From a virus: a stretch of 64,000 nt of DNA. Under the pieces are notes generated by a model, which saw only the letters and a program-made list of their open reading frames with translations, did no database searches and was not told the DNA's origin. Position 1 is the stretch's first letter; every line of letters begins with the position of its first letter. The translations under genes and the position numbers were made by a program. This document shows positions 8,661 to 56,161 of this stretch, piece after piece. The stretch spans positions 60,290-124,289 of IMG/VR virus record IMGVR_UViG_3300031578_000002, one strand, 5' to 3'.

Positions 8661-9418
8661 AATAATGTATTTGGATAAGTTGGAGGTGTGAAGACTTGTT
8701 CATTTAAACTCCATTTTAATGCACTTCCATCCCATCCTATTAATGTTGAGTTTTCATACCTAACTTTTAATTCATCAAAATTTCCAACTAAGCAGTCAGA
8801 AGTAAACCCTATAAGCATTCCAATATGACTTTTAAATGTTTGAGGATTAAATCCGATAACAGAAATTTCACTTTTAACGTAACAAATACGCCCATCAACA
8901 AAAGTAGTACAAACACCATTTTGAAAAGTTATTAAGTTATGTACCCATGTATTTGAGGGGGTTGGATAAAGTGTTGTACCTCTATCTACCCCTAATTGGG
9001 CTGACAGTAAAAATGTTGGTAAAATAGAATACCCATAAGCCCCATTTGCAGTTAAGACAAGAGTAAACGCATTACTACTGTCAGTTGGGTAGTTAGATAT
9101 ATCAAAAAGTCTTTGCGAAGAGGTAGCTGCGTCAAACTTTACCCAAAACTCCATTATAAAATTCTGAGAATAGTTAAATGGTACACCCTCTAATTGTTCT
9201 CCCCCAACATCGAAGCGCAAACCGTCACCGTTTTCACTTGGAGTACCTATTTTTTGCCTAAACACGTTTGAATTGTAACGGTTCTTAACCTTAGAAACAA
9301 GATTGCTCCCATCCTTAGTAACACCATAAGAACTGGATATATCAATAATAGGAGGTGTCTTTATTATCTCTCCAGATATATTTCTTATTATCTTATTATC
9401 TTGAAGGATTAGACTCAT
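8657..9418 (-). CDS. Concanavalin A-like lectin/glucanase (LamG) domain tail protein
   Basis: NFIMEFWVK...NTWVHNLITF...TFVDG...GNFDELKV pattern. Confidence 0.65.
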   Translation of the reverse strand: MSLILQDNKIIRNISGEIIKTPPIIDISSSYGVTKDGSNLVSKVKNRYNSNVFRQKIGTPSENGDGLRFDVGGEQLEGVPFNYSQNFIMEFWVKFDAATSSQRLFDISNYPTDSSNAFTLVLTANGAYGYSILPTFLLSAQLGVDRGTTLYPTPSNTWVHNLITFQNGVCTTFVDGRICYVKSEISVIGFNPQTFKSHIGMLIGFTSDCLVGNFDELKVRYENSTLIGWDGSALKWSLNEQVFTPPTYPNTLL

Positions 9419-9765
9419 ATTGACGGTGTTGTAGTAATTATCAACTTATCGGGGTCAAAACTAGGAAAACATTGTATAATATATTCTTTGATTCTTTGGT
9501 CAAAGAAATAAAATACATTTGAATCATTAGTTGGGTAATTGAATTTGAATTCATATTTATCTCCCTCAAACCCCTCAATTTTCAATGCATTAGTTGGAGA
9601 ATCGAGCATCTTTTCTGCGCTCATAAAGAACCCAATCTGTGCTCGAATCCTCACACTATCAACTTTATCGTTTGATATTTCAACGGTATGTGCTGAAATA
9701 ATGGTTTGTTCCAAAGGAACTCCTGCATTGGAGATTATTACTTGATTTTGATTAATTATTGCCAT
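9415..9765 (-). CDS. Small hypothetical protein downstream of tail fibre (possible fibre chaperone)
   Basis: Likely start MAIINQNQ at 9765; the longer ORF overlaps the fibre stop. Function inferred from position only. Confidence 0.4.
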   Translation of the reverse strand: MAIINQNQVIISNAGVPLEQTIISAHTVEISNDKVDSVRIRAQIGFFMSAEKMLDSPTNALKIEGFEGDKYEFKFNYPTNDSNVFYFFDQRIKEYIIQCFPSFDPDKLIITTTPSI

Positions 9766-9785
9766 TATAATATTTTTATAAATAT

Positions 9786-12700
9786 CTATATTATTTTTTC
9801 CATTGTAAAATATATTGAAACCACACCAGAACCCCATGAACTCGAACTCACGTACATATCAGTATCATTAACTGAACTAAAATAAACTCCATTCGTATTA
9901 ACTAGTACTGCTTTTACATCAGCACTTGCACCAACAGTTTGAGCATTTACAATATCAGTTCCACCGCTTGTACTGCTAATCGTAATATCACCAGCAGCAT
10001 TCCCTGATGTTTCAATGATTATGATCGTATCTATTTGGTATCCTGCTGGTAGATAAGTGCTTAATATTTTATCTGTGCTTATATTTGCTTCAACGCTTCG
10101 TAAAATATCTGTATATGGTACTGTTGGCTGTGGAACTGTTTTGCTGCCTGCTACATCATAACTCCATACATCGCCATCTGCAATTCCTGTTGGATCAACA
10201 TCTACTAATGAATTCAATCTTGGCGATATATCCGTAGATGTTGCTCCGGCATTATCAGCAGCAATTTCAGTACCAATTCCATTTGTTTTAAATGTAAGAT
10301 ATGTTTCTGGACTCAATGCAGTACCTGCGTTATTCTTTATTGTATGGCCACCACCAGTTGAGTTAATTGTAATTTTAGTGCTACCAGTTGTTATCGTAAT
10401 ATTTGTTCCTGCACTTAATGATTTGAATCTTAAATCAACACCGGACTTGCTTGCATATATTCCAACACCACTGCCTAAATTACTTGCAGTATTTATTTCA
10501 GCCTGTGTAATTGTGCTACAAAACGTTATGTCCGTTGTAGTACATGACATGGCAATGCCCGTTCCAGCCTTTAGTGATTTAAAAGGAAAATTAACCCCTG
10601 ATTTTGATGTGAATATACAATATCCTGTACCTAAGTTACTTGCGGTATTTGCTTCACCAGTACCACAAATCGTTATATCATTAGCAGTGTTTGTTATAAT
10701 AGTGCCAGTTCCAGCTAATAATGATTTAAATCTCAAATCAACCCCTGATTTGCTTGCATATACACCAGTACCACTTCCTAAATTACTTGCAGTATTTGCT
10801 TCAGCAGTACTATTAATTGTTATATCAGTTGTTGTACAAGTTATATTAATTGCTGTTCCTGCAAGTAATGATTTAAATGGTAAATTAATACCGGACTTAG
10901 AAGTAAATATTTGATAGCCACTACCTAAATTACTTGCTGTGTTCGCTTCACCAGTACTGCAAATTGTTATATCATTTGCTGTACATGACATGGCAATGCC
11001 CGTTCCTGCAAGTAATGATTTAAATGGGAAATTAACCCCAGATTTTGTAGTAAATATACAATAACCACTACCTAAATTACTTGCCGTATTTACTTCGCCC
11101 TGTGCTGCTGAATTACATATTGTTATGTCATTTGCAGTACAAGACATGGCAATACCTGTTCCAGCACATAGTGACTTAAATGGAAAATTAACTCCTGATT
11201 TTGTAGTAAATATACAATAACCACTACCTAAATTACTTGCCGTATTTACTTCGCCAGTTATCGGTGCAGTACCATAACTTAATTCTTTAGTACTTGTATC
11301 ATAAAAAACAATGTTGCTCTTACTAGCATTTGTTAAACCCGATATGTATGTTTTACCTCTTACGCATAATTTTTCATTATCAAATTCACCATATATTAAT
11401 GACTTTGCAGCTGAATTTGCTATATATAACCTGTTCGAGCCCGTCTCATTTAAACCAGCATTATATCCGATTGCAACATTACTATGTCCTAATTCATTAC
11501 TAGCTAATGCATTATGCCCAATACCAACATTATTATTACCTGTATACATATTACTTAATGTATCAGCACCGATTGCAACATTATAACAACCAATGTTATT
11601 ATTTAAAGCAAAACTTCCAAATGCAATATTATGATTACCTGAGCTATTAAACGCAAGCGATTGATCTCCAATTGAAATGTTATTTGTACCAGTAGTATTA
11701 CTATGTTGTGAATTACATCCAATACTAATATTATTACTACCACTGGTATTATTACTAAGTGTTGACATGCCGATGCCGATATTGTTACTACCAATTGCAC
11801 CTGATGCTGTTAATATATTGCAACCAATAGCAACGTTTCCTTGACTACTAATTGCATTATTCATAATTTTCGATCCAATTGCAACGGTACCATCAATAAT
11901 TGATGTTGCCAGAGATAAAACATCTTGTCCAATTGCTATTACATCATTTGCACACGTATTAGAACATAATGCGTTATTACCCATTGCAACAATTCCACAA
12001 CCATGTATTATACTAAGACCATCAACGAATGATGTAACGTTCGCTCCTGCATTTACACCATAAAAAGTATTTCCACTTAATGCTGTTGAGCTACCGGGTG
12101 TACCACACCCAATGACTGTCGATTGTTTGGTTAAATCCGACCAGCCAATATCACTTCCAGTAGTGCCACTAGGTGTTGTTCCATAACTTAACTCATTTGT
12201 TGATGAATCATAATATATAACATCAGTTTTTGTTGAGTTTGTTAAACCCGATATGTATGTTTTTCCTCTTACACAAAGCTTTTCATTGTCAAATTCACCA
12301 TAAATTAAAGATTTATTAGCTGAATTTGCTATATATAACTTGTTTGAGGTTGTTTCATTATAACCCGAACAACTACCGAGAATAACATTACTACTACCAG
12401 TTACATTTGAATATGCAGCATTTGTTCCAATAATAGTATTATTACTACCAGTTGTTATACCTTTTCCAGCACATACTCCATAAATTGTGTTTCCACTATA
12501 TGTGCTACCACTAATAATCGTTCCACATCCAACAACTGTTGAGGTATTACCAGTACTTGACCAACCAACACTTGTTGAGGTAGTTACACCAACTCTTTTT
12601 GTTGTTGAGTTCCAACATAAATAATTACCACCACCAGCTGGCGTACATAATATCGCCAAGTTCGGTATTGCAACATAGTTAGCAAATGTCGAACTTGCTA

Positions 12701-21491: not shown

Positions 21492-21521
21492 AAACCTCAT
21501 AAGAATTTTCTTATGAGGTTT
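21492..21521. terminator. Strong intrinsic terminator ending the non-coding RNA region
   Basis: AAACCTCATAAGA-ATTT-TCTTATGAGGTTT, a 13-bp perfect stem. Confidence 0.8.
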
Positions 21522-21551
21522 CTATTTAAAAAGTTATTATTAATTTAGTTC

Positions 21552-22060
21552 TTTTACTGCAATCACATTTTTTAAAAATCCTGTAATTGACTATTAATTT
21601 TCTATTTATCTTTGACCCAATTTCTTCCCTTATTATATAATTTCAACCATAAATACTATAAACATTTAAAAATAAAATTGAGCAAAGTTTGATATGTTCA
21701 ATGTCAAATCTTTGCCCAATCCATTTTGGAATTATATCTTCTTATATAAGAGAAGAAGTTCTTCCATAATTTCAGCTGTTCAATAACTTTTATCAGGAAT
21801 CTTGCTAACCATAACAATGTTATGCGCTTCACACACCATAAAAGAGCTGAGTATTTCTACTTATCCTAAGTGTGTACCTTTGAGTAACTACTCTTTTAGC
21901 CAAGTTATTTACTCTTTTTTCACAGCCAAAAATCTTTTTTGAAAAAGACTGTACTTCTACAGCCAAAACCATTCTTAATCATCAAATGTTAGACAGCACG
22001 CCTCATTTTTATGAAAAAACTGGTACTGACAGCTAAAAATAATAATGTGGGAATATTTTA
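21552..22060 (-). ncRNA. Putative structured non-coding RNA(s), unassigned family
   Basis: No ORF of 60 aa or more. Several hairpins pair better on the minus strand through G-U pairs (21678-21719 TTGGGCAAAG/CTTTGCTCAA; GCTGTA-GAAG-TACAGT; AGCTG/CAGTT). TTTT(G/A)GCTGT occurs three times. Confidence 0.5.
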
Positions 22061-22174
22061 AAAGTATTTTTTGTTTTTTATGCAAGTTCTACGGACTTGT
22101 GACTTAACCGCTTGTCTAATCATCCTCTAAGAGATAATTGTGGATTCGAACCACTGATTTACTGTAAACACTTT
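22061..22174 (-). tRNA. Circularly permuted tRNA-Tyr(GUA)-like gene
   Basis: Order on the minus strand: T arm GTGG-TTCGAAT-CCAC, acceptor 3' strand ATTATCT, linker CTTAGA, acceptor 5' strand GGATGAT, TA, D arm GAC-AAGCGGTTAA-GTC, anticodon arm CAAGT-CCGTAGA-ACTTG. The outer ends AAAGTGTT/AATACTTT pair. C33 is non-canonical. Confidence 0.6.
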
Positions 22175-22328
22175 ACGTTTTCCCTTTGTATTTTAAAGAA
22201 CTCTACCAAAAGACCAACCATTTGGTATATTATCGCTCTTTTTTATTTTTTTAACACATTTGAATTTGCCATATTATACTAAATTTTAATTTTAATATAA
22301 ATACCAAACAAATTCAAAAAAGCCCAAG

Positions 22329-22465
22329 TAGGGAGAACAGGACTCGAACCTGTAACTCATTGTTTTCAACACAATTGCTTTACCTTTTACTGAAAACACC
22401 ATTAGTTCTCCTTGTGTAAGGAGCATTGAGATAGTATTCTTTGTTTTTTATTTTGCTATCTCCCC
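22329..22465 (-). tRNA. tRNA-like gene (anticodon UGA, short variable loop) with a 60-70 nt insertion in the D arm
   Basis: GGGGAGA/TCTCCCT acceptor stem, TAGC...[insert]...GGTAAAGC, ATTGT-GTTGAAA-ACAAT anticodon arm, ACAGG-TTCGAGT-CCTGT T arm, A73, no encoded CCA. Confidence 0.65.
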
Positions 22466-22538
22466 ATATTAAATATGATAAAGAACTTTAGAAGAAATTT
22501 GTCAGTGTAGTTTTGTTTTTGAAAAACCATCAATTTAC

Positions 22539-23846
22539 TTGGGTAAGTGTAAAACCCATTCATCACGTAGTATGGGTGAGATGTAAGCGGCCACTATAAT
22601 AAAATGTAAATAAAATTTATACTTTCTTTAAACTTTTTGATTTTTCTTGGTATTTATATATGATGTTGAAAGCTTTTAAATATAGACTTAACCCGAATAA
22701 AGAACAAATTGTTCTTCTTAATAAGCATATTGGCGCAAGTAGGTTTCTATATAATTTAGCTTTGGAAACTAAACAAATTGCTTATGCCGGTAATAAACAT
22801 AACCTTTCTTGTTTTGAATTACATTCACAACTAAAAGAATTAAAAGAAGAATGTCCTTGGTTAAAAGAACTTAATTCACAATCTCTACAACAAGCTATAA
22901 CTAATCTAGATAAAGCATATACAACTTTTTTTAAAGGTCAAAATTCATTCCCAAAATTTAAAAAGAAATCTAATGGTGGTAGTTTTAATATACCACAAAG
23001 AGTTATAGTAGAAAATAATAAATTAATTATACCTAAATTTACAAAGAAAAATGGAATAGATATAATCTTACATAGACCAATTAAAGGTGAAATAAGACAA
23101 GCAACAATATCTAAAATACCTACCGGTAAATATTTTGTAAGTATTTTATGTGAAACTGGTGAACAAAATAAACCAAAACCTAAGATTAAAGAAGAAACAA
23201 CAATAGGAATTGATTTAGGGATTAAAGATTTTGTAATTACCTCTAATAGTGAAGTGTTTGACAATCCAAAATATTTAAGAAAGGCACAAGATAAATTAAA
23301 ATATATACAGAGTAAATATTCAAAAAATAAAGGAAAAAAAATAAAACAAAAATTAGCTAAGTTACATGAAAAAGTAACAAATAAAAGAAAAGATTATTTG
23401 CATAAAGTATCAACTAAATTAATTCGTGAGAACCAAACGATTTGTTTAGAAGATTTGAATGTATCAGGTATGATTAAAAATCATAAGTTAGCACAAAGCA
23501 TTAGTGATGTTGGTTGGTCTACATTTGTGACTATGTCAGAATACAAAGCTGAATGGTATGGAACAAATATACTTCGTATTGGTAGATTTGAACCTAGTAG
23601 TAAGACATGTTCATGTTGTGGTAACATTAACGAAGAACTAACATTAAAAGATCGTGAATGGACTTGTGTTAGGTGTAACACTAAACACGACAGAGATATA
23701 AATGCTGCTGTAAATATTAAAAATTTTAGTTTAAGAAATATCTTGTCAGGGACTGACAGGAAAAATCATGACGAACTGCCTACGTTAGTAGGAGTACTGA
23801 CTCATGAAGCCCAACCCATCAGCACTGCTGTGGGTGGGTAGTTCAC
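22539..23846 (+). mobile_element. IS200/IS605-family (IS1341-like) TnpB-only element 1
   Basis: Left-end hairpin ACCCA...TGGGT-GAGATGTAAGCG after TTTAC; right end GAAGCCCAACCCATC...GTGGGTGGGTAGTTCAC. Both ends align with element 2 (54743-56166). Confidence 0.85.
22660..23841 (+). CDS. tnpB: TnpB RNA-guided nuclease
   Basis: HTH KAFKYRL, GIDLGIKD, ICLEDLNV, CSCCG...CVRC zinc finger, HDRDINAA; the catalytic D-E-D triad is intact. Confidence 0.95.
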   Translation: MMLKAFKYRLNPNKEQIVLLNKHIGASRFLYNLALETKQIAYAGNKHNLSCFELHSQLKELKEECPWLKELNSQSLQQAITNLDKAYTTFFKGQNSFPKFKKKSNGGSFNIPQRVIVENNKLIIPKFTKKNGIDIILHRPIKGEIRQATISKIPTGKYFVSILCETGEQNKPKPKIKEETTIGIDLGIKDFVITSNSEVFDNPKYLRKAQDKLKYIQSKYSKNKGKKIKQKLAKLHEKVTNKRKDYLHKVSTKLIRENQTICLEDLNVSGMIKNHKLAQSISDVGWSTFVTMSEYKAEWYGTNILRIGRFEPSSKTCSCCGNINEELTLKDREWTCVRCNTKHDRDINAAVNIKNFSLRNILSGTDRKNHDELPTLVGVLTHEAQPISTAVGG

Positions 23847-23886
23847 TGAAATAACGAACAGTTTCCTTTTTATTTTTTCATTAATT

Positions 23887-23894
23887 TAAAGAAC
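23887..23894 (-). promoter_or_regulatory. boxA-like antitermination motif GTTCTTTA (further copies at 22479-22486 and 22194-22201)
   Basis: An identical octamer precedes each tRNA-like unit and resembles the rrn boxA (G(C/T)TCTTT). Confidence 0.5.
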
Positions 23895-23911
23895 GTTGTC
23901 CTAAGACGATA

Positions 23912-23942
23912 CAAACATAAAATTAATTATTTTAATTTGCAA
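23912..23942 (-). promoter_or_regulatory. Bacteroidota-type sigma70 promoter facing the tRNA-like/ncRNA array
   Basis: TTG, 20 nt, TATGTTTG on the minus strand; no minus-strand CDS follows it. Confidence 0.65.
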
Positions 23943-24024
23943 GCTTTTTATAAAAAAAATATAATTGTCTTGGGTATATAAATACGTAATGTTTTTACAA
24001 AATGTTATATTTTTAATAAAATAT

Positions 24025-54961: not shown

Positions 54962-56161
54962 ATGAAAGTAATTAATAAGACATATAGATTTAGGATTTCA
55001 CCTAATAAAGAGCAGGAAGTGTTACTAAATAAGCACTTTGGTTGTTCTCGCTTTGTCTATAATTACTTTTTAAATGAACGTAAAGAGCAATATCAACAAG
55101 ATAAGAAATCAGACAATTATTATGCACAAGCAAAAACTCTAACTGATTTAAAAAAGCAAGAAGATACTATTTGGTTAAAAGAGGTAAATAGTCAAACCCT
55201 TCAATTTGCTTTACGTTCTTTAGATACTGCTTACGTAAATTTCTTTAGAGGTAATGCACAATTTCCAAAATTTAAATCAAGAAAACACAAAAATACTTTC
55301 ACAATTCCCCAATTCGGAGTGTTAACCGATGACAAAATATCAATACCTAAATTTAAAGAAGGAATTAAAGTAAAATTACATAGAAAGGTTAATGGCAAAA
55401 TTGGTAAAATGAGTATTACCCGAACACCTACTGGTAAATATTATGTATCAATATTCACGGAACAACATATTGAAGAATTACTTAAAACAAATAAACAAGT
55501 TGGAATTGACCTTGGAATTAAAGATTTTGTAATTACATCTGATAATAAGAAATTTAAAAATAATAAATATACAAAGAAATATGCAAGAGAATTAAAGAAA
55601 GCACAACAGCATCTTTCTCGTAAAACAAAAGGTAGCAATTCGTTTGAAAAACAAAAACTCAAAGTTGCCTTAATTCACGAGAAAATTGCAAGTTGTAGAT
55701 TAGACGCTTTACATAAAGTTTCACATCAACTGGTTAATCAATATGACTTATTATCAGTTGAGGACTTGAATGTAAAAGGTATGATTAAAAACCACAAATT
55801 ATCCAAACATATTGCTGATGCAAGTTGGGGTACTTTTGTTACATTACTACAATACAAATGTAATTGGTATGGAAAAGAACTTGTAAAAGTAAATCGTTTC
55901 TATCCTTCAAGCAAGACTTGTAATGTTTGTGGATGGATAAATCAAGACTTAAATCTTTTGATTAGAGAGTGGACTTGTAATAATTGTGGTGAACATCACG
56001 ACAGAGATGTTAATGCAAGTATCAATATTCTAAAAGAAGGATTAAAAATATATCGTCAGGAACTGGCGATTACAAAGGTGGAGAGTAAATCAGACGTTAG
56101 TAATAACGCACGCTCAATGAAACCTGAAGCCCAACCCATCGCCTTTGGCGTGGGTGGGTAG
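54962..56161 (+). CDS. tnpB: TnpB RNA-guided nuclease
   Basis: KTYRFRISP, GIDLGIKD, LSVEDLNV, CNVCG...CNNC, HDRDVNAS; triad intact. Confidence 0.95.
   Translation: MKVINKTYRFRISPNKEQEVLLNKHFGCSRFVYNYFLNERKEQYQQDKKSDNYYAQAKTLTDLKKQEDTIWLKEVNSQTLQFALRSLDTAYVNFFRGNAQFPKFKSRKHKNTFTIPQFGVLTDDKISIPKFKEGIKVKLHRKVNGKIGKMSITRTPTGKYYVSIFTEQHIEELLKTNKQVGIDLGIKDFVITSDNKKFKNNKYTKKYARELKKAQQHLSRKTKGSNSFEKQKLKVALIHEKIASCRLDALHKVSHQLVNQYDLLSVEDLNVKGMIKNHKLSKHIADASWGTFVTLLQYKCNWYGKELVKVNRFYPSSKTCNVCGWINQDLNLLIREWTCNNCGEHHDRDVNASINILKEGLKIYRQELAITKVESKSDVSNNARSMKPEAQPIAFGVGG

Follow-up and report, generated by a model that had tools for sequence, protein, structure and literature searches.

The described RNAs closest to those of the locus reported here are of several kinds. 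The stable RNAs C and D (species 1 and 2) of phage T4: these are small RNAs of the T4 tRNA cluster, which are co-transcribed with the phage tRNAs and freed by the tRNA-processing machinery. The GOLLD (RF01998) and ROOL (RF03087) RNAs: these measure ~580-800 nt, form multimers (PMC12286853) and are known as large phage-associated RNAs in or near tRNA arrays (PMC12286853, referring to Morgado 2020). The freshwater-1 RNA (RF02979): this is a further orphan RNA of phage tRNA arrays. The bacterial and phage Y RNAs (YrlA/YrlB and Yrn1/Yrn2; RF02553): these are small RNAs arranged upstream of the Ro60 gene, at most a few kb away and on its strand, which in bacteria carry the motif GNCGAAN0-1G in a terminal stem close to the 5' end (PMC4201824) and include tRNA-like and hairpin-type members in Salmonella, Mycobacterium and Deinococcus.

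The locus that we compare with these systems is positions 21552-22060 (the interval) of a 64,000-nt stretch of DNA, here called the window, from IMGVR_UViG_3300031578_000002, a 140.8-kb IMG/VR virus record with an estimated completeness of 46% (CheckV). The window has a G+C content of ~28%, and its minus strand carries nearly all genes around the interval. Read along this strand the order is: a helicase gene; tnpB, itself on the plus strand; two tRNA-like units; the interval; a strong terminator; and two large ORFs, in neither of which a Pfam domain was found. We read the interval as the distal end of a minus-strand operon for stable RNAs, which a jumbo phage carries 3' of its DnaB-like helicase gene; it very probably encodes at least two genuine, separately evolving minus-strand structured RNAs within this tRNA/tRNA-like operon. 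We termed these modules C and D; their neighbors are modules A, B and E. The features in and around the interval, in minus-strand order except for tnpB, are as follows:

27096-24025, minus strand: DnaB-like helicase gene with a LAGLIDADG intein, first in the order along this strand
22660-23841, plus strand: TnpB gene (OrfB_IS605, with Cas12f1-like TNB and HTH domains)
22068-22048, minus strand: 3' side of module B's outer closing helix, overlapping the right edge of the interval
22039-21942, minus strand: module C, an RNA of ~100 nt (nhmmer, pattern scan, covariation)
21927-21774, minus strand: module D, a multi-helix RNA of ~154 nt (alignment, pair statistics, RNAalifold, covariance model R1)
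21765-21737, minus strand: remnant of module E (compared with E of L020, L043, L032, L058, L005, L029 and L068)
21715-21668, minus strand: weak hairpin resembling a terminator, GCAAAGAUUUGA...UCAAACUUUGC, its U-run interrupted
21524-21667, no strand: AT-rich spacer of ~140 nt (the scar)
21523-21490, minus strand: strong intrinsic terminator, a 15-pair stem with a U-run (terminator scan)

Using the flanking proteins we fetched 67 related loci from viral contigs, many of which are 320-365 kb long. Across these loci, blastn and nhmmer detect minus-strand blocks of 75-85% nucleotide identity, as against helicases that are 47-81% identical, and from one phage to another each module varies independently of the rest in presence, copy number and spacing. 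Bona fide tRNAs, namely tRNA-Met(CAT) and one other, open the cluster in the relatives. The terminators in the cluster lie on the minus strand, where the scan found three sites versus 0.6 expected. Free-standing homing-endonuclease genes of the GIY-YIG and HNH/NUMOD types are observed between the RNA modules of relatives and beside one copy of module D; this suggests that endonuclease-driven exchange shuffles the RNA modules. Their positions are:

L049:8411-9091: homing-endonuclease gene
L059:8343-9014 and 9281-9949: homing-endonuclease genes
L029:13023-13589: homing-endonuclease gene
L109:1800-2315: homing-endonuclease gene

A sequence-only reading of the window had described the interval as ~500 nt of structured non-coding sequence. 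Of this, ~250 nt, comprising modules C and D, are indeed conserved structured RNA, whereas the idea of a single ~500-nt unit does not hold: in the left ~240 nt, which carry no conserved RNA, the remnant of a module is followed by a weak terminator and by spacer that is not conserved. As that reading stated, there is no ORF; the longest stop-to-stop frame in 21530-22065 has 51 codons under code 11 and none of the usual stop reassignments opens a long minus-strand frame there, which rules out a protein-coding interpretation. The same reading saw hairpins whose plus-strand mismatches turn into G-U pairs on the minus strand; folding, as this would predict, favors the latter, with -113.5 kcal/mol (z -2.9) for the minus strand against -82.9 (z -1.95) for the plus strand. 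The strong terminator with which it closed the region (at 21492) was recovered as a minus-strand hairpin of 15 pairs, at 21523-21490. The long-range complementarities AAAAGAG/CTCTTTT and ACACAC/GTGTGT that it listed turn out to be covarying helices, both inside module D. The repeat TTTT(G/A)GCTGT occurs, as it had noted, at 21922, 21959 and 22029; the 64 kb of the window contain no further copy, all three are minus-strand copies, and 0.38 would be expected by chance (2 of 100 shuffles reach three); in the relatives they fall at the 5' edge of C, in the C terminator stem and in helix P1 of D, without a shared role. A second repeat, TTTTTCAAAAA, lies at 21936 and 22516 as reported; its two copies do not exceed chance (1.29 expected), and the copy at 21936 is the conserved U-run/A-run tail of the C terminator in the relatives.

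Neither did we find a known RNA family here, in accord with the same reading. The 4227 covariance models of Rfam 15 give no match at the gathering threshold in the whole window, the interval included, and at E-values up to 10 the interval yields only chance-level matches, one to His_leader, which falls on the terminator, and one to mir-2059, which corresponds to the weak hairpin at 21715-21668. No tRNA cloverleaf is detected within 21552-22060 by ARAGORN or RF00005; ARAGORN recovers no tRNA gene in the window, and the sole RF00005 match obtained with E-values up to 10 scores 28.4 bits (threshold 29) and lies outside the interval, at 22337-22391. The region has no blastn match among 50,697 GenBank phage records. 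The interpretation as one or more unassigned phage non-coding RNAs thus stands for C and D, which are conserved in nucleotide sequence among phages with helicases of just 50-60% identity, display compensatory base changes and lack any Rfam 15 match; covariation across related phages, put forward as a check, is found in both.

The tnpB gene nearby could suggest that the interval is part of its element, whether as a transposon end or as an omega (guide) RNA. In IS200/IS605 elements, the guide RNAs of TnpB come from the 3' end of its gene. Here, the RNAs are on the opposite strand, at least 600 nt 5' of tnpB. Moreover, the modules are conserved in ~80 related loci, just one of which (L008) has a partial TnpB match; TnpB is matched in just one more locus, L090, which is unrelated, was picked up by the first pattern scan for D and has no D match. 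Coding sequence is also the sole part common to the two TnpB copies of the record. We regard an origin from the TnpB element as having almost no probability. As separate observations, the second TnpB gene, at 54962-56161, is diverged, with 66% nucleotide identity to the first over ~400 nt; and the first element (22539-23866, with flanks 23867-24024 and 22505-22538) is seemingly inserted in a further small module of the cluster, its minus-strand flanks reading ...GUUAUUUCA and GUAAAUUGAUGGUUUUUC... on either side. A second A-type RNA is represented at 23940-23880 by its promoter-like block and its 3' trailer, but its body is missing. A tRNA split by the element was also considered and rejected: joining the flanks over a grid of junctions gave no tRNA by ARAGORN.

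The two tRNA-like units preceding the interval are modules A and B. Module A (22325-22464, minus strand), which lies outside the interval, is a tRNA-like RNA with an inserted arm: its acceptor stem GGGGAGA/UCUCCCU covaries across the relatives, and ~57 nt separate the 5' strand of the acceptor from the D-arm. Relatives often have two paralogous copies of it, and in some of them CCA is encoded. Module B (22043-22190, minus strand; body ~22190-22069) is a circularly permuted tRNA-like RNA, with the order T-arm, acceptor 3' strand, (G)CCA, loop, acceptor 5' strand, D-arm with GG and anticodon-like hairpin. Where relatives have GCCA, after the acceptor 3' strand, a short CUUAGA linker is all that the window copy has. 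Most of the 'anticodon' loops are non-canonical, lacking U33. The outer closing helix of B, which occupies the position of the variable arm and reaches into the interval, pairs 5' AGGGAA...AAAGUGUU with AAUACUUU...UUCCC and covaries (e.g. agagaa/ttctct in L070). In most relatives a conserved GUUCUUUA(A) box is seen ~15-25 nt upstream of the first nucleotide of A and B (window positions 22479 and 22194, minus strand); a phage promoter element and a signal for processing are both possible roles for it. It was not found in C, D or E. A further motif, GUGUUU(U/A)CAGUAAA, beside a helix with an A-rich partner (AAAUAC), is common to A (~22391-22379), B (~22167-22155) and the E modules of relatives. 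The RNAs linked to Ro60 (see below) may share it as a site for binding a protein or for processing; C and D are without it.

Module C is located directly 3' of B, of B plus one extra hairpin, or of tRNA-Met, and was found in 28 related loci by nhmmer and in 63 viral loci by a scan with its core pattern. Its elements are:

22028-22023 with 21999-21994, minus strand: 5' hairpin, CAGUAC paired with GUGCUG, plus an inner U/A helix
21992-21982 and 21979-21965, minus strand: invariant core, CUAACAUUUGA...AUUAAGAAUGGUUUU
21964-21947, minus strand: terminator hairpin, followed by a U-run at 21946-21942 (terminator scan)

The core, in short form CCUAACAUUUGA...GGUUAAGAAUGGUUUUU, is identical in essentially every copy and consists of CCUAACAUUUGA followed by UGGUUAAGAAUGGUUUUU, with an optional hairpin between the two. 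In an alignment of 18 relatives the hairpin of C is 100% paired and all six of its pairs are changed on both sides, as are five of the six pairs of the terminator stem; the covariation score is reached by none of 500 shuffles, and slid controls are 41-54% paired. The 5' hairpin is replaced or absent in some copies in which the core is kept. Since the core helix CAUUU/GAAUG is invariant, the structure of the core is a prediction. The segment 21964-21947 has the hairpin and U-run of a minus-strand intrinsic terminator, and its stem covaries in the relatives. The copy in the window deviates at three of 45 conserved columns and is no outlier.

In ending with a covarying, GC-poor hairpin and a U-run after a U-rich stretch, C resembles Rho-independent terminators and the 3' ends of Hfq-type sRNAs. 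Ordinary terminators, however, do not have its 30-nt invariant upstream core or its conserved GAAG-type hairpin loop, and no target complementarity was identified for C. Such an invariant core suggests that a partner, itself conserved, binds it. C is most likely the 3'-terminal domain of a transcript carrying B (or tRNA-Met in some relatives), which would end at C's own intrinsic terminator, and the 30-nt core is probably the binding site of a conserved factor. Alternatively, C could act in cis as an attenuator of the riboswitch-like or protein-responsive kind, whose core senses a factor and sets read-through into D, E and the Ro60-like operon of the relatives. Consistent with this, the conserved core is immediately 5' of the covarying terminator hairpin, D begins ~15 nt past the terminator U-run with no space for a promoter, and C is always the last element ahead of the distal modules. 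However, we found no alternative anti-terminator pairing; no ligand or factor is known for C; its core lacks the covariation that would define an aptamer fold; and in L021 and L022 C is followed only by the promoter block of the next protein gene, leaving attenuation a doubtful explanation. In sum, C may be either a factor-binding 3' domain or an attenuator, the former being the likelier.

Distal to D, the comparison with relatives brings in a set of protein-coding genes. In ~70 of the relatives' loci the RNA cluster is directly followed by a gene for a Ro60-like protein and then by a gene with an ARPP-1 domain, for example at these positions:

L049:9706-12482: Ro60-like and ARPP-1 genes
L059:11050-13784: Ro60-like and ARPP-1 genes
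L029:11320-13014: Ro60-like and ARPP-1 genes

The first of these encodes a 555-aa protein that is 70-80% identical across the ~70 loci. It has no sequence match in Pfam or the PDB, and Pfam scans of its distant relatives give only weak hints of a vWA domain; its alignment keeps a DxSxS MIDAS motif. Its AlphaFold model (pLDDT 92.5) retrieves only Ro60/Rsr/TROVE chains among the top 12 PDB matches. By predicted fold, then, this protein is confirmed as Ro60-like, with a modeled TROVE ring and a vWA/MIDAS domain. Module E precedes this gene at a median distance of ~150 nt in 28 of 52 distinct loci.

In the window phage the Ro60-like and ARPP-1 genes are deleted from the end of the cluster. Neither gene was found in the 140.8-kb record, which is 46% complete by CheckV, so that the loss can be stated for this position but not for the phage as a whole. 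The scar takes the place of ~3 kb that hold the two genes in the relatives; it has no nhmmer or blastn match in the relatives, and tblastn detects no remnant of either gene in it. In the relatives, the site of the weak hairpin at 21715-21668 is occupied by a strong terminator, GGGCGGGG...CGCCCAUUUUUUUU, with which the RNA cluster closes. The strong terminator of the window, together with the promoter region of the next gene, forms a conserved block (F) that is found 3' of the ARPP-1 gene in 12 loci. Module E, too, is a dead remnant here: GGAAGAACUU directly abuts CUUCUC-UUAUAU-AAGAAG, and the ~90 internal nucleotides seen in the relatives are gone. On the plus strand of the scar, at 21612-21641, a near-consensus sigma-70-like promoter (TTGACC, 18 nt, TATAAT; 11/12) points antisense into the cluster and is probably a chance occurrence in AT-rich DNA. 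Decay of C and D in the wake of the Ro60 loss is not supported, neither window copy being an outlier; two of their deviations at conserved columns, taken together, are compensated.

This arrangement raises the possibility that the phage Ro60-like protein has C, D and E as partners of the Y-RNA type, which would tether or regulate it as YrlA and YrlB do for bacterial Rsr and whose function would depend on Ro60; taken for all of them, this is unlikely. As in the case of the bacterial Y RNAs (PMC4201824), the relatives' row of RNAs immediately precedes the Ro60-like gene, shares its strand and has both tRNA-like (A, B) and hairpin-type (E) members. Additionally, E in particular is close to the gene; all the fetched loci with C belong to the Ro60-bearing phage group; and E is broken in the one phage without the Ro60-like gene at this position. 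A functional link between E and Ro60 fits with the joint loss of the E interior and the Ro60-like gene. On the other hand, the motif GNCGAAN0-1G is not conserved in the alignments of C or D, both of which also lack a T-arm and a match to RF02553, and the Rfam YrlA model has no match in the interval. The window C and D look intact even though the Ro60-like gene is gone from the position, which argues that they do not need a Ro60-like gene encoded there. A same-strand Ro60/TROVE gene downstream of the cluster is seen in ~70 relatives and in neither the window record nor most D loci: at least 40 phage loci with D have no Ro60-like gene within the fetched flanks, and only three distinct Ro60-bearing relatives have D. 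A Y-RNA-like role with Ro60 is plausible, if still improbable, for C and E, and unlikely for D.

Module D proved to have the most elaborate structure. Its outer stem, from which the other helices can be placed, is:

21927-21922 with 21779-21774, minus strand: P1, GGCUGU paired with ACAGCU

An alignment (A5) of 32 distinct sequences supports seven helices, among which are a kissing-loop and a pseudoknot formed by a bulge. The stacking of P5 under P1 leaves this bulge, of 11 nt, from which a 4-bp pairing (X1-Y1) is made to an inner strand in the alternative forms GCGU/ACGC, GAGU/ACUC and GUGU/ACAC, the window having GAGU/ACUC. The loop of the P2 hairpin, GGAGAG, kisses CUCUC in the P3 loop (AAAAGAG/CUCUUUU in the window form), and P3 itself is ACACAC/GUGUGU, with double compensation in L111 and L081. 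Further hairpins are an optional GNRA-capped one and a variable P4. The junctions AAGGGUA, UAAUGG, GAAGC and AGAUUCCUGAUAAA are invariant; altogether ~60 columns, mostly in junctions, show conservation of 90% or more. Among the cells of 36 pairs, 94.2% are paired versus 76.9% in shuffled alignments; 24 of the 36 pairs are doubly changed, none of 500 shuffles reaches any of the measures, and slid partners are 29-52% paired. RNAalifold independently recovers P5, P2 and P3. The copy in the window, the only one that model R1 finds in its record (141.6 bits), deviates at four of 64 conserved columns and is not an outlier.

Could C and D with the remainder of the interval be a single large ornate RNA comparable to GOLLD or ROOL? 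The length of the interval, its structure and the tRNA-like genes beside it would be expected of such an RNA; yet the RF01998 and RF03087 models have no match even at E-values up to 10, an intrinsic terminator separates C from D, and the left ~240 nt are unconserved. Furthermore, C occurs without D in ~60 loci and D alone between tRNAs in ~40. We therefore consider a single ~500-nt RNA of this kind very improbable, in favor of C and D as separate RNAs.

Pattern scans place D in 44 viral loci, many of them outside the jumbo-phage group, and in only three distinct loci of the ~80 relatives, which makes it an accessory, exchangeable module. In phage loci it is typically found inside long tRNA arrays, of up to 27 tRNAs per locus, usually beginning 1-2 nt after one tRNA and ending 5-6 nt before the next: e.g. 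in L171, D spans 10995-11148 between a tRNA ending at 10993 and another starting at 11154, with the same spacing in L195, L198 and L199. It is further present in 10 genome contigs, nine of which are from Bacteroidota, including Chryseobacterium polytrichastri, Prevotella, Bacteroidaceae and Tannerellaceae; this presence is a hint that the host of the window phage is probably a member of the Bacteroidota. Model R1 recovers one D copy in each of five Bacteroidota seed genomes and, under stricter filters, none in 150 other genomes of the same order. D is accordingly sporadic in bacteria, and the idea of a housekeeping RNA of Bacteroidales was rejected. No recurrent protein-gene partner was found among its neighbors in phage and bacterial loci, where the following are seen once each: an HNH/NUMOD endonuclease, a 5'-3' exonuclease, DUF6717, AAA_15/AAA_21, a PglZ response regulator, HD, DUF2130 and a tRNA synthetase.

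Like GOLLD, ROOL and freshwater-1, D is a non-coding, multi-helix RNA with pseudoknots that resides in phage tRNA arrays. In contrast to them, it has no match to their models, possesses its own helices and invariant junctions, and, at 130-190 nt across its copies, is well short of the ~580-800 nt of ROOL and GOLLD. Typical copies of D from 16 other loci have no Rfam match at the gathering thresholds or at E-values up to 5, and the copy in L171 has no blastn match in the 50,697 GenBank phage records, which we assume include T4-like phages. In full-text literature, searches for the invariant motifs and for RNAs of tRNA arrays returned no description of C or D; either may be listed among the 10,006 unnamed virus RNA candidates of PMC10690425. 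D seems to be an RNA family that lacks an earlier description and that belongs with GOLLD, ROOL and freshwater-1, the orphan RNAs of phage tRNA arrays. Separately, we note a match to freshwater-1 (RF02979; 62.9 bits, cut by the end of the locus) at L202:1-58, in the same tRNA array as a copy of D; as the two share this array, phage tRNA arrays seem to collect several orphan RNA families.

The tight placement of D between tRNAs points to a mode of production. Where it lies between them, D would be freed as a discrete molecule by the tRNA-processing enzymes, an arrangement that, by analogy, would be that of the T4 stable RNAs. In the window, the C terminator stands between C and D, so that D there depends on read-through or on an unseen promoter; with only ~15 nt separating the terminator from D, read-through of the C terminator would be needed. 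Complex-fold RNAs with comparable covariation and invariant junctions are usually ribozymes, riboswitches or scaffolds of protein machines. The seven covarying helices, two tertiary pairings and ~60 near-invariant junction nucleotides of D argue for a precise three-dimensional fold, which is predicted to bind a protein or ligand or to catalyze a reaction. We tentatively propose, as one possibility, that D belongs to a new class of catalytic or ligand-binding RNA, or of self-assembling RNA akin to ROOL and GOLLD, which is carried in the tRNA arrays of Bacteroidota phages, freed by tRNA processing and used in tRNA-centered conflict with the host. D probably acts in trans through its precisely folded core; that it does so in such a conflict is itself suggested with low confidence.

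With respect to the Ro60-linked RNA locus of giant phages, module C and the E remnant extend the picture, and the window presents a natural variant, in which the Ro60-like gene, the ARPP-1 gene and E have been lost at this position while C and D are intact. Module D, for its part, is compact, well-defined and widespread, and it sits where phages keep their counter-measures to tRNA-directed defense. Because it is compact and its ends are set by the flanking tRNAs, it is easy to synthesize and test. If the proposed role is true, D could neutralize a tRNA-targeting defense or act on the tRNAs themselves.
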